A stretch of 64,000 nucleotides of DNA from Deinococcales bacterium (GTDB taxonomy: Bacteria; Deinococcota; Deinococci; Deinococcales; JAAFIG01): positions 1 to 64,000 of the forward strand of contig JAYWGM010000089.1 in assembly GCA_043778225.1 (NCBI GenBank), given 5' to 3'. Below the pieces are notes generated by a model. That model had not been told where the DNA came from. It made no database searches and saw nothing but the letters and a program-made list of their open reading frames with translations. Positions within the stretch are counted from its first letter, which is position 1. The number at the start of each line of letters is the position of its first letter. The position numbers and the translations under genes are program-made. Shown in pieces: positions 44,803-52,577 of this stretch.

Positions 44803-44907
44803 TTATCCACAGGCTTAAACTTATTTCCAAGCAATCTAAGCTGTCAAACACAACCTTAAAAATAGTTATCCACATTATCCACAGAGTTATCCCAAAGCTG
44901 TGGATAA
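44803..44907. promoter_or_regulatory. DnaA-box cluster downstream of dnaN
   Basis: TTATCCACA at 44803, 44866, 44875; TGTGGATAA at 44899. Confidence 0.9.
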
Positions 44908-46090: not shown

Positions 46091-46334
46091 TTAAATTATA
46101 TAAATAGTAGTAGTAGTAATAGGGGCTGTGGATAGTGTGGATAAGTGCCTTTTGAATTGTTCAGCACGGTATTTGTCTTGTGGATAAAACTGTGTATAAC
46201 TACCCCCTTGCTTGTGGATAACTGTCTAACAACTTGGCACTTGTCCACAGGGCTGAAGGAGACTCGAGTTATCCACAAGTTATCCACAGTTTGTCCACAG
46301 CTTTTCCACAGGGTTATGAACAGGGTTATCCACA
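46091..46334. other. Replication origin oriC core (DUE, DnaA-trios, DnaA boxes)
   Basis: AT-rich 46091-46104, TAG trios 46105-46122, GC cluster, boxes at 46127, 46136, 46179, 46191, 46213, 46241, 46269, 46280, 46291, 46302, 46326. Confidence 0.95.
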
Positions 46335-47690: not shown

Positions 47691-47880
47691 ATTCTATAGG
47701 TTATCCACAGGCAGCGATAGTGGTAGAAATAAAGGTGTGAGTTTGAACTCGAGTTCGGTTGTTTTTATAAAGTAATGCGCTATAGAAGAATTTTATAGGT
47801 TTTTGAGTGGTAGTTTTGAAATTTTAACACACTATTAGGTTTGACTTTGAATGTGGATAACTTAGGGTAATTGTGGATAA
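47691..47880. promoter_or_regulatory. dnaA promoter region with DnaA boxes
   Basis: Minus-strand TAGAAT 8 nt before GTG; perfect boxes at 47701, 47852, 47872. Confidence 0.8.
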
Positions 47881-47885
47881 CTTTA

Positions 47886-47979
47886 ATGTTTCACGGGCAA
47901 CTGTTTTTCTGGTAAACAAGTCTACGTGTGTTAGGGGGACAAAGTGATGTTTCACGGGCAACTGTTTTTCTGATAAACA
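47886..47979 (+). repeat. 33-bp direct repeat x2, each containing a parS-like site
   Basis: atgtttcacgggcaactgtttttctg(g/a)taaaca at 47886 and 47947; core TGTTTCACGGGCAACT vs parS consensus TGTTTCACGTGAAACA (13/16). Confidence 0.7.
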
Positions 47980-47985
47980 TATGAA

Positions 47986-48354
47986 ATGGCGTTAAACGAA
48001 TTTGATTTAGGTTACATTATGGGTTTAATGGTTGGCGAAGGCTCATTTACTGGTGATAAAGAACAGCCAGCCTTACAACTTCGGCTTAAAGATGATGACC
48101 CTGAACCACTCAAACGACTCAATCGGCTATTGGGTGGTAGTATTTATGGACCATATAACCATAGCGAACGTCGCTACTATGTTTGGATGCTGCGCGGCGC
48201 AGCCCTTTGGAAAGCCACTGAACTTTTTTACCAATACTTGCCAAACAGTCGAAAACGTAGACAATTTCTCGAGTGGTGGAAAAAATACGCCCATAAACTG
48301 CCACCAATTCCAGAATCAAAGACAGAAGCACCAGCGCTTGAGGAGACAACATGA
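47986..48354 (+). CDS. Single-motif LAGLIDADG-like protein
   Basis: GYIMGLMVGEGSF motif, L..L..LLGGSIY, YVW.L, RKR.QF; stop overlaps rsmG start. Confidence 0.75.
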   Translation: MALNEFDLGYIMGLMVGEGSFTGDKEQPALQLRLKDDDPEPLKRLNRLLGGSIYGPYNHSERRYYVWMLRGAALWKATELFYQYLPNSRKRRQFLEWWKKYAHKLPPIPESKTEAPALEETT

Positions 48355-48908
48355 CCCAAACCGATAAACTCGAGCAATATAAAAAACTGGTCAAAGACTA
48401 TTCACGAGTCTTGGATTTGAGTTCGCCAAAAATGCTTGAGCAATTTGAAACTGGCATTGAACGAAGCCAGCATTTTGCCAATGCTATTCAACCCAAGGCT
48501 CGAGTTTTGGATGTTGGCAGTGGTGCAGGCTTACCAGCTATTCCGATCGCCATTCTCAGACCAGATGTGCAAATTACACTTTGCGAAATACGCAATAAAC
48601 GAGCGGCTTTCCTTGAACGAGCCATCAGTGTGCTTCAGCTTGAGAATGCAAGTGTTTTTCAGGGTGATGTCCGTAAACTGGAGGCGACTTTTGATACCGC
48701 CACGGCACTGTGGCTGGGAAGTCTCGAGGAAATTGTAAAGCTGGTCAAACCGAGACTTATCGGGCAATGGAGTATCATCACTCGAAAAGGGATTGAACTC
48801 GAAACGGAATTTGCCAAACTACAAAAAAATAATCCAAATATCGAACTCAAAACCCAGCAACTCGAGGATGGCGCATGGTTGGTTATCCTGAGTGAAAGAC
48901 AAGAATGA
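48351..48908 (+). CDS. rsmG: 16S rRNA m7G methyltransferase
   Basis: VLDVGSGAGLPAIPIAI, E.R.KRAAFL; position before parA. Confidence 0.85.
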   Translation: MTQTDKLEQYKKLVKDYSRVLDLSSPKMLEQFETGIERSQHFANAIQPKARVLDVGSGAGLPAIPIAILRPDVQITLCEIRNKRAAFLERAISVLQLENASVFQGDVRKLEATFDTATALWLGSLEEIVKLVKPRLIGQWSIITRKGIELETEFAKLQKNNPNIELKTQQLEDGAWLVILSERQE

Positions 48909-48920
48909 AGGGAGGCAAAT

Positions 48921-49676
48921 ATGGCAGCAAAAATCATTAGTTTGGTCAATCAAAAGGGTGGGGTTGGTAAAACCACCACTGCCGTTAATCTGGCAGCCTA
49001 TCTTGCCAGTCATGGACAGCGCATTTTGCTGATAGACCTCGACCCACAAGCCAACGCCAGCAGTGGCTTGGGAATCCAAAAAGCTGAGCTTGGTATCTAT
49101 GATGTGCTGATGGGCGACTCGAGCCTTGAAGCGGCAATCCAAAAGACCGAACAAGAAAACTTGAGTGTACTACCAGCCACGCCAGACTTGGCTGGGGCAA
49201 CAGTAGAACTCACCGACCACCCCAATAAACTAAAATCTGTTTTGGGCAGCTTAAAAGATTTTGATATTGTGTTGATTGACGCGCCGCCTTCCTTGGGCGC
49301 ACTGACGATTAACGCTCTGACGGCTTCAAATGCCCTGATTATTCCACTGCAAGCTGAATACTATGCCCTTGAGGGAATCGCTGGAATGCTTGATACAGTC
49401 GAGCGAATTAAAGTCAATCTCAACCCAAACTTAAAAACCCTTGGGATTGTCGTGACAATGTTTGACACCCGTACCAATCTGGCGCAGCAAGTCGAGCAGA
49501 ATGTCCGTCAGCATTTTGGTGATTCAGTTTTTTGGAGCGTTATTCCCCGCAATGTCAAACTCTCCGAAGCCCCAAGCTATGGGCAAACAATCAATAAATA
49601 TGCACCAATCTCGAGTGGTGCGGGTGCATACAAAAGACTGGCTCAGGAGGTGATGCAGCGTGTCCAAAAGCTCTAG
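48921..49676 (+). CDS. parA: Chromosome partitioning ATPase
   Basis: [42 protein letters not shown]. Confidence 0.97.
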
Positions 49677-50520
49677 CCCAGTAAAAACCGGCGGCTTAGG
49701 CAGGGGTTTGGATGCTTTAATTCCTAAAGCCAACTTGGAAGAAAAAGTAGTCGTTCCCAATATGTTGGCAATTAAATTGCTCGAGCCAAACTCCAAACAA
49801 CCACGTAGAAACTTCAACGAAGAAGCCCTTGAAGAACTCACCGCCAGTATTCGTGAAAAAGGTGTTTTACAGCCGCTTTTGGTGCGCCCACGCGGTAAGC
49901 GCTATGAAATTGTGGCTGGAGAACGCCGTTGGCGTGCCGCCACTCGAGCTGGACTTGAGCAAGTTCCGGTGGTGATTCGAGAACTGACCGACCGTGAAAC
50001 GCTTGAAATTGCATTAATCGAAAATTTGCAACGCGAAGACCTTGGCGCACTCGAGGAAGCAAAGGCATACAATCAACTTTTGGAACTTGGTACAACCCAA
50101 GACGAAGTTGCTAAAGCGGTTGGCAAAGCCCGCAGTACGATTACCAACAGTTTGCGCTTACTGCAACTGACCCGCGATGCCCAATTGGCACTCGAGGACA
50201 ACAGCATTACGGCTGGACACGCTCGCGCGATTTTGGGACAACCCGCCGTTGACCGCGATTGGGCATTAGAACAGATTGTGGTGCGAGACTTAACGGTGCG
50301 CCAAGCCGAAATGCTCAAGCGCGAACCAGCCCCCGAAATTTTAGCCAAGCAAGCTACCCTTGAAAAACCACGGCTGCATCGGCAATTGGAGCTTGAACTC
50401 TCGAGAATTGCTGGTACAAAAGTCAAAATTGTGGGCGAAGACAAAGGCAAACTCGAGTTGTATTATCACAATCTTGAGGACTTACATCGAATTCTTGAGA
50501 TATTGGGCTATGAGGCTTAA
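49660..50520 (+). CDS. parB: Chromosome partitioning protein
   Basis: [35 protein letters not shown]. Confidence 0.97.
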
Positions 50521-51612: not shown

Positions 51613-51678
51613 TGCTTTACGCGGCTGGTACAGTTTGCTTTACGCGACTGGTACAGTTTGCTTTACGCGGCTGGTACA
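51613..51678. repeat. 23-bp tandem repeat x3 duplicating the sensor-kinase 3' end
   Basis: ctttacgcg(g/a)ctggtaca at 51615, 51638, 51661. Confidence 0.95.
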
Positions 51679-52577
51679 AAAAATAAAAACTCATTGCCAC
51701 TCAAGTCGGCTCGGTACGAACCAGCAACTTCGCCGCCCCAAGCCCGCACGATGCTGCGGACAATATACAAACCCATGCCAGACCCTCGAGATTGCAAACT
51801 GCGCCGTTGGGCTTCAAAAATACCATGATAATCGGGTAAAACTGTGCCTTCATCAACCACGCCGATTTTCCAAAATGCGTCGCTTCGGGTTGCAAAAATA
51901 CGGATTCGTCCGGGGTTGGGTGCATGACGGGCAGCATTTTCGATTAAATTGAGTAAAACTTGCACCAATTTATCTGGGTCACAGCGCACCAGCACATCGC
52001 TAAAACAAAGCTCGAGACGTACATCGCGCCGTCCTAATTCGGCATTGGTCAAACGCTGTACTCGCTCTAAACACTCAAGCAACAACAACGTTCGCTCGGC
52101 TTGTGGGCGGAAACCAACTGTTAAATCCTCGACCAAGCGCACCAGCCGCTCAACCTCGAGTAAACCCATTTGGATAAACGAGGCTTGGGTGAGCGGCGGT
52201 GGCTCGAGTGCCAAGGCTTCTAGGAGGCTTTTAATCGCTGCTACTGGGGTGCGAAACTCGTGCGACAAGACTGCCATGACTTCGCGCAACTCCGATTCGC
52301 GTTGCCGTGCTGCTGTAACATCCTCGAGCAATAAAGCACCAGTCACCGATTTAGCAACAAAAGTGCGCCCACTGAGTTCTAGCTCGAGTGAACCGCCCTC
52401 TAAGATAAGTCGCTCGAGCCGATGATGCCGCAAAATTTCGATTGGCAGACGTTGAATAGCCCGTTCGCTCGAAATCCCAAAAAGTTGTTCGGCTGCCAGA
52501 TTTAAGCCCGAAACCCGCCCTTGTTCAAAAAGTACAACCGCAAGCTCAAGTGCCTGAAAAGCATTGTTGAGGCTCAT
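51663..52577 (-). CDS. phoR: PhoR-like cytoplasmic sensor histidine kinase
   Basis: SHEFRTP, QVLLNLIENA, GSGMGL; between response regulator and phoU. Confidence 0.8.
   Translation of the reverse strand: MSLNNAFQALELAVVLFEQGRVSGLNLAAEQLFGISSERAIQRLPIEILRHHRLERLILEGGSLELELSGRTFVAKSVTGALLLEDVTAARQRESELREVMAVLSHEFRTPVAAIKSLLEALALEPPPLTQASFIQMGLLEVERLVRLVEDLTVGFRPQAERTLLLLECLERVQRLTNAELGRRDVRLELCFSDVLVRCDPDKLVQVLLNLIENAARHAPNPGRIRIFATRSDAFWKIGVVDEGTVLPDYHGIFEAQRRSLQSRGSGMGLYIVRSIVRAWGGEVAGSYRADLSGNEFLFFVPAA

Follow-up and report, generated by a model that had tools for sequence, protein, structure and literature searches.

Chromosomal ParABS systems have been described as consisting of three parts, with the setting of ParA and ParB levels an open question (PMC13371061), and whether locking of the ParB clamp occurs beyond plasmid RK2 has likewise been named as open (PMC13768133). 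On RK2, KorA and TrbA co-repress with KorB by clamp locking, and, as small homodimeric site-specific binders whose operator lies over a promoter and which work with a clamp of the ParB family, they are the closest working analogy to the family described below (PMC13768133). Among LAGLIDADG proteins, WhiA/DUF199 carries two LAGLIDADG domains and a C-terminal HTH, with the catalytic acids absent; it resembles the present case as a bacterial LAGLIDADG protein that its hosts have retained and that has links to its own promoter as well as to the expression of parAB (PMC3384342). I-TevI is likewise an endonuclease-family protein whose operator overlaps its own promoter (PMC3943268).

Here we analyzed a window of 64,000 nucleotides, the whole stretch of Deinococcales DNA under study, in which a small LAGLIDADG gene directly precedes rsmG, parA and parB. 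Gene and accompanying site are real, conserved and, so far as the literature was searched, undescribed: no description of a LAGLIDADG-parS family was found in the open-access literature at the level of titles and abstracts, subscription journals lying mostly outside the search. Given that the gene and a centromere-like site are gained and lost together across several phyla, the LAGLIDADG-fold dimer is likely to be a DNA-binding partner of ParB rather than an ordinary selfish nuclease.

A Free-Standing LAGLIDADG Gene Heads the rsmG-parA-parB Series

The ORF in question is a real gene with the motif GLMVGEGSF. As an earlier note on this DNA had read from the letters, its 122-aa product carries a single motif with the acidic residue kept, and its TGA overlaps the ATG of rsmG (ATGA, 48351-48354; Table 1), a stop-on-NTG-start overlap that recurs in 42 of 49 Deinococcota homologues and in 14 of 15 within f1, the source family. 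The LAGLIDADG fold proposed in that note is borne out. Pfam LAGLIDADG matches to the protein are sub-threshold (E about 0.01) and NCBIfam gives no match to it; the AlphaFold model (pLDDT 86.8) retrieves I-TnaI, I-Vdi141I, I-AniI, I-OnuI and I-CreI in Foldseek (probability 1.0, TMq 0.6-0.7), with LAGLIDADG endonucleases filling the ranks throughout among the matches listed, and a profile of 68 family sequences matches solved LAGLIDADG enzymes at E 1e-10. By predicted structure and by profile, the protein belongs to the LAGLIDADG structural superfamily.

The protein is further predicted to form a homodimer through helix 1 (residues 4-18), with a score of 0.76 against 0.00 for the best control, runs that agree on at least 95% of contacts and a pLDDT of at least 85; 20 of 30 solved pairs attain the mark used, as does 1 of 23 single chains, and the score may be biased by the LAGLIDADG dimers already solved. 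This fold, the predicted helix-helix dimer and the association with a pseudo-palindrome are shared with I-CreI, I-TnaI (5gkk) and I-Vdi141I (3e54), and the window's subfamily also shares with them the acid at the end of helix 1 and the lysine at the catalytic position. In contrast to those enzymes, the gene is shorter (a core of about 105 aa), lies outside any intron or intein, occupies a single-copy, fixed chromosomal locus and is inherited mostly vertically, while the linked palindrome is found in carriers only and the catalytic residues are lost in many intact members. I-TevI, of the GIY-YIG family, differs in being intron-encoded and mobile, with no parS involved. Some homologues (P0014, P0033 and P0107) are tandem two-domain proteins, like monomeric LAGLIDADG enzymes.

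The free-standing nature of the gene, also claimed in the earlier note, is confirmed: Rfam recognizes no intron RNA between 44500 and 51000, and the ORF stands outside any other gene. At another locus (L146:4307-6364), an NAD-dependent epimerase-like ORF by a homologue seems, by eye, to hold an intein-like LAGLIDADG-type insert. The parallel with WhiA that had been drawn does not extend to membership, which we rejected: the protein has 122 aa and a single domain, with no HTH and no match to the WhiA model, E18 is present in 50 of 51 Deinococcota copies, and the gene is tied to a parS-containing site.

Table 1. Features of the partition locus in the window
Feature	Position	Strand	Remarks
DnaA-box cluster, 8 boxes	46136..46334	.	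between dnaA and dnaN; likely oriC core
dnaA	46348..47682	-	named from sequence, not from a family scan; context
Three DnaA boxes (47701-47709, 47852-47860, 47872-47880)	47701..47880	.	spacer from dnaA to the LAGLIDADG gene
Composite site, copy 1	47886..47918	+	parS-like 16-mer 47887-47902 (3 mismatches to consensus) and 17-bp palindrome 47902-47918
Composite site, copy 2	47947..47979	+	parS-like 47948-47963 and 17-bp palindrome 47963-47979
Free-standing single-domain LAGLIDADG protein	47986..48354	+	122 aa; E18, K90; predicted homodimer
rsmG (gidB)	48351..48908	+	start overlaps stop of the LAGLIDADG gene
parA	48921..49676	+	follows rsmG
parB	49660..50520	+	ParB likely binds the parS-like part of the composite site

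The gene had also been placed at oriC and in the usual position of mnmG. It does adjoin the origin region, dnaA and dnaN being divergent and upstream of it and the last DnaA box of the spacer lying 5 bp from the first composite site, but it is probably outside oriC proper, because the densest DnaA-box cluster, 1.7 kb away, sits between dnaA and dnaN. Nothing points to control of oriC, which the earlier note had considered, or of DnaA. Four further DnaA boxes lie immediately downstream of dnaN (44803-44907), and a 23-bp tandem repeat is present three times between a phoU-like gene and a sensor-kinase gene (51613-51681). CTCGAG is conspicuously frequent in the source genome and its relatives, like an over-represented palindrome, by uncounted impression. 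As for mnmG, the order in f3 and f5 (taken to be Deinococcaceae and Thermaceae) is mnmG-gene-rsmG-parA-parB, which does not agree with the gene standing in for mnmG. No mnmG was found in the 19 f1 genomes, among them the two of g3 that lack the LAGLIDADG gene, one of which is assembled as a single contig, and mnmE gives no match over the cut-off in the source genome; f1 has thus probably lost the MnmEG tRNA wobble modification family-wide. Since mnmG is absent also from gene-less f1 genomes, the gene did not displace it, and the family lost mnmG independently.

A Composite parS Site Is Gained and Lost With the Gene

Two 33-bp direct repeats, 97% identical, lie in the spacer, the second ending 6 nt before the ATG of the LAGLIDADG gene. 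Each is composed of a parS-like 16-mer and a palindrome, TGTTT-N7-AAACA, that overlap by one base, and this composite tracks the gene, a point that the earlier note had missed; its suggestion of a link to partition is borne out by these parS-containing repeats as well as by the downstream rsmG-parA-parB. In f3 and f5, the site takes the form of a 27-bp pseudo-palindrome. Its left half, in reverse complement, is the core of Thermus thermophilus parSc, to which ParB binds specifically in EMSA (PMC4409726), and the parS core of D. radiodurans chromosome I is one base from that half (PMC7022226); in the passages concerned, both reports deal with plain sites of 16 bp, and no second arm or LAGLIDADG partner is mentioned.

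Within f1, 14 of the 16 gene-bearing genomes match the composite form of that family, with two copies each, at the locus. Of the two misses, one contig begins inside the site and the other genome has a degenerate site beside an inverted gene; a single match with 2 mismatches lies in one gene-less f1 genome, far from the locus. Across families f2-f5, a genome-wide pattern scan found the 27-bp composite in 89 of 90 gene-bearing genomes and in 0 of 200 gene-less ones, each f3 or f5 carrier having just 1-2 copies; the sole gene-bearing miss (G262) has a degenerate site, and gene-less genomes have a plain parS or none at the mnmG-rsmG junction. Given that the patterns were built from gene-bearing loci, only the absences test the link between site and gene independently. 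On the ParA+ParB tree (114 loci, one having been left out for a cut contig), supported branches give ten independent pairs that differ in carrying the gene; in nine of them on average the site goes with the gene, and it never goes against it (sign test, median p about 0.004), and kinship does not explain the co-occurrence.

Losses point the same way, gene and site decaying together: in G080 the gene is down to a 79-nt remnant and the arms of the site have decayed, the -35/-10 being intact, and in G157 both gene and site are degenerating. CTGA or ATGA following a plain parS in five gene-less genomes (G044, G107, G128, G137 and G210) was rejected as a relic of the second arm, being better explained as the mnmG stop or the rsmG start, so that G080 is the only clear relic. 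In many f3 and f2 genomes, parS overlaps the last mnmG codons (reading VSRET), and further parS copies are found inside mnmG, rsmG or parB. A wider regulon was ruled out, the composite occurring only at the LAGLIDADG locus in the source genome and at the low copy number given above in f3 and f5; two partial 17-mer matches on contig C94 are without the parS half.

Similar sites accompany the homologues of Gemmatimonadota, Acidobacteriota, Actinomycetota and Chloroflexota. Over all phyla taken together, a parS-like 14-mer lies within 150 nt upstream of the gene in 100 of the 103 loci with enough flank, against 159 of 3300 random windows (5%), and a second, lineage-specific arm usually follows it. 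A generic composite regex had been uninformative (58/111 against a background of 15%) and was superseded by this test. At seven Gemmatimonadota loci, the upstream copy consists of the left element alone and the gene-proximal copy of both elements, which fits a host ParB site plus a separate site for the LAGLIDADG protein. Many Gemmatimonadota loci (L126-L155) have a parS-like variant with GCCAC arms instead of TTCAC, which suggests an altered ParB specificity in that phylum.

This distribution bears on the possibility that the gene is a selfish, free-standing homing endonuclease beside parS, which would cut gene-less alleles and use a bound but uncut copy of the site as an autorepression operator, for which I-TevI offers a precedent (PMC3943268). 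Homing predicts a target in gene-less genomes that is absent from carriers; the linked site shows the opposite distribution, although a different target may have gone unrecognized. Since the extended site never occurs in gene-less genomes, there is no empty target of that form, and plain parS is also present in carriers, where cutting it should be harmful.

The Family Spans Several Phyla and Is Not Confined to par Operons

A family profile search found the gene, always in single copy, in 99 of the 301 genomes of the phylum: 8 of 10 in f1 besides the source genome, 79 of 112 in f3, 11 of 62 in f5, and none of 14 in f4 or of 102 in f2. The closest named records are from uncultured Deinococcales. 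Beyond the phylum, 108 clusters match at E <1e-10, one of their members being labelled Thermodesulfobacteriota. We collected 69 loci from named genomes, of which the 59 non-Deinococcales ones come from Gemmatimonadota, Acidobacteriota, Actinomycetota and Chloroflexota, with one from Armatimonadota and two unclassified. At 44 of these 59, par, rsmG, mnmG or dnaA genes lie within 4 kb. Thirteen of the other 15 are Chloroflexota, with no par gene within 4 kb and with the gene following a tRNA-Arg in the nine that were scanned, and in many Actinomycetes the gene is convergent to parB; control of parAB therefore cannot be universal in the family. Two further genomes show rearrangements. In G075 (L187, G075:C1:15500-29000), about 10 kb separates mnmG and an intact composite site from the LAGLIDADG gene, the genes in between being methyltransferase-, purK-, purE-, RNB- and sirtuin-like as named by eye, and in G010 (L016/L188) the gene is inverted and points into dnaA, with one degenerate site kept upstream. 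No column of ParA or ParB convincingly tracks the presence of the gene.

The placement in Chloroflexota and Actinomycetes, the distant site of G075 and the absence of a tracking ParB column favour the loading or spreading of ParB as the target. An alternative reading builds on this, in which the dimer would gate ParB at the centromere: sitting over or beside parS, it would occlude or help loading, or else stand near oriC as a roadblock that lets ParB spread to one side only; autorepression would be a side effect. In agreement with such gating, what is constant across phyla is the parS-like site and not membership of a par operon, and G075 keeps its site 10 kb from the gene. The whole f3/f5 27-mer being a pseudo-palindrome, one dimer could cover parS. 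Moreover, a perfect or 1-mismatch parS core could not be found in the source genome, its two composites being the only 2-mismatch cores on the origin contig, while perfect parS occurs in rsmG and parB of G009 and G013, relatives that lack the gene; the source genome is, however, only 89% complete. Against gating, the site keeps a near-fixed distance from the 5' end of the gene even after inversion or displacement of the gene, a constraint to be expected of an operator but not required of a roadblock, and gene-bearing f3 genomes also keep a plain parS inside mnmG. We consider this alternative unlikely.

The Gene Is Under Purifying Selection and Its Catalytic Residues Are Dispensable in Many Members

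Of the two options left by the earlier note, a domesticated factor or an invading homing endonuclease, domestication is the likelier. Pairwise dN/dS (the simple NG86 method, pairs with dS of 0.1-1.5, two broken copies left out) has a median of 0.065 for the gene in f1 (17 pairs), against 0.11 for rsmG and 0.026 for parA; in f3 the medians are 0.24 for the gene (188 pairs), 0.16 for parA and 0.23 for rsmG, the last from only 3 pairs. The gene is thus under purifying selection, with dN/dS similar to or below that of rsmG. The presence and absence of the gene imply 15 changes on the 115-row ParA+ParB tree, at least nine of them forced by supported branches. Of the strong splits in f3 and f5, 8 of 10 are common to the gene tree and the ParAB tree and the other 2 conflict; in f1, 3 of 4 are common and none conflicts. 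Inheritance is therefore mostly vertical, with repeated loss. The earlier note had held that a patchy, decaying distribution would refute domestication; the distribution is indeed patchy, but the copies are nearly all intact, are under purifying selection and are for the most part inherited vertically, only 2 of 99 in Deinococcota being visibly broken or degenerate.

Within Deinococcota, the gene falls into two deeply split subfamilies at the same genomic position (support 100, from only 103 columns): that of the window groups with Gemmatimonadota, Chloroflexota and Acidobacteriota, and that of f3 and f5 with most Actinomycetota. Two subfamilies at one position point to an old duplication or to transfer into that position, and together with the two conflicting splits they imply some transfer.

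These data also weigh on the selfish endonuclease. Its patchy presence with 15 changes, the occupation of a single position by two subfamilies within one phylum and the frameshifted copies (4 of 6 in Acidobacteriota, as well as that of G166) are what such an element could leave behind, whereas the mostly congruent trees, the scarcity of broken copies and the sole remnant found, which looks like a deletion, argue against it, as does the fact that no homologue was matched in phages, plasmids or viral contigs.

The catalytic residues bear on the same question. E18 occupies the position of the metal-binding acid, at the end of helix 1, and K90 aligns with a conserved catalytic lysine of I-OnuI-type enzymes. 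Both are kept in 16 of 16 f1 proteins, including that of the window, whose copy may still be able to cut DNA; their retention in f1 speaks for an endonuclease. In the f3/f5 subfamily, by contrast, the lysine position is non-basic in all 34 proteins that cover it, the alignment there being approximate. Sixteen of 141 database hits have another residue in place of the acid, as do 9 of the 55 non-Deinococcales loci covering the position, and all nine of these copies are intact and keep the site. Given that intact copies lacking the acid keep the site, binding and not cutting looks like the selected property of the family, and we regard a selfish endonuclease as quite unlikely.

A protein that is domesticated and yet still cuts, as HO does (PMC3384342), would combine both properties: it would cut or nick the parS composite when ParB is absent, in the service of recombination or copy control in the origin region. 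The catalytic residues and strong purifying selection in the window's subfamily are compatible with this, but many intact members do without these residues and still have a site of the same kind, and neither a donor cassette nor a switching structure was seen in the vicinity of the site. We judge this the least likely of the rivals, and very improbable.

The Site Overlaps Promoter-Like Elements in Two Lineages

In g7, TTGAC-N18/19-RAAACW, a -35 followed by a -10 inside the site, is found at all 21 gene-bearing loci tested. It is also found at 7 of 19 gene-less loci, six of which keep a perfect parS over the promoter without the second arm; since these loci keep both promoter and parS, the positioning of ParB over the g7 promoter looks independent of the gene, which adds the downstream arm. 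In Gemmatimonadota, a TAnnnT box, read by eye, lies between site and start codon, 6-7 nt before the start. Site and promoter-like elements thus overlap in two lineages as judged from sequence, and a KorA-like overlap of putative operator and promoter near a ParB loading site was recognized in g7 and, by eye, in Gemmatimonadota, and not in the window, where a consensus scan of the spacer ahead of the gene gave no promoter on the plus strand.

Based on these observations, we propose that the predicted homodimer binds the palindrome fused to the origin-proximal parS, just upstream of its own gene, while ParB would occupy the parS-like left half of the composite. Together, dimer and ParB would repress transcription of the LAGLIDADG gene itself and, where this gene heads the operon as in the window, of rsmG-parA-parB too. 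The selected function would be one other than DNA cutting, and the outcome a feedback control of ParA and ParB dosage that is useful but dispensable. This model, which draws on analogy as well as on sequence, we consider evenly poised between being right and wrong. Compared with KorA, it involves an unrelated fold, a chromosomal ParABS system, an operator fused directly to parS and one locus per genome. In a broader form, which covers locking, gating or blocking of the ParB clamp, the domesticated LAGLIDADG dimer would be a widespread, undescribed fourth component of chromosomal ParABS that reads an extension of parS and, in at least five phyla, ties expression of the partition operon to the occupancy of the centromere; that this is so seems to us slightly more probable than its opposite.

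If this is correct, a LAGLIDADG protein would have been domesticated for chromosome segregation independently a second time, after WhiA, and been caught in a state in which some lineages retain the catalytic residues and others have lost them; should the protein instead prove to be an active nuclease with ties to parS, it would make an equally unusual case, that of a selfish gene associated with the centromere. Because the family offers a candidate protein together with its exact predicted DNA site, lineages in which the function has been lost naturally, and hosts that look cultured (f3 and f5 include complete genomes), the questions of ParA and ParB levels and of clamp locking become directly testable.

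RNA contigs from four runs of one study, belonging to an f3 relative of 90-95% identity, span the gene together with rsmG and parA, and two break in the spacer between mnmG and the gene; as contigs show neither starts nor levels, we gave them no weight. Three f3 homologues (L017:1400-1500, L018 and L019) have no ATG, GTG or TTG near the expected start and instead show GGAGG followed after 5 nt by an in-frame ATC, which suggests a non-canonical start, and several other homologues begin with TTG, which would keep expression low.
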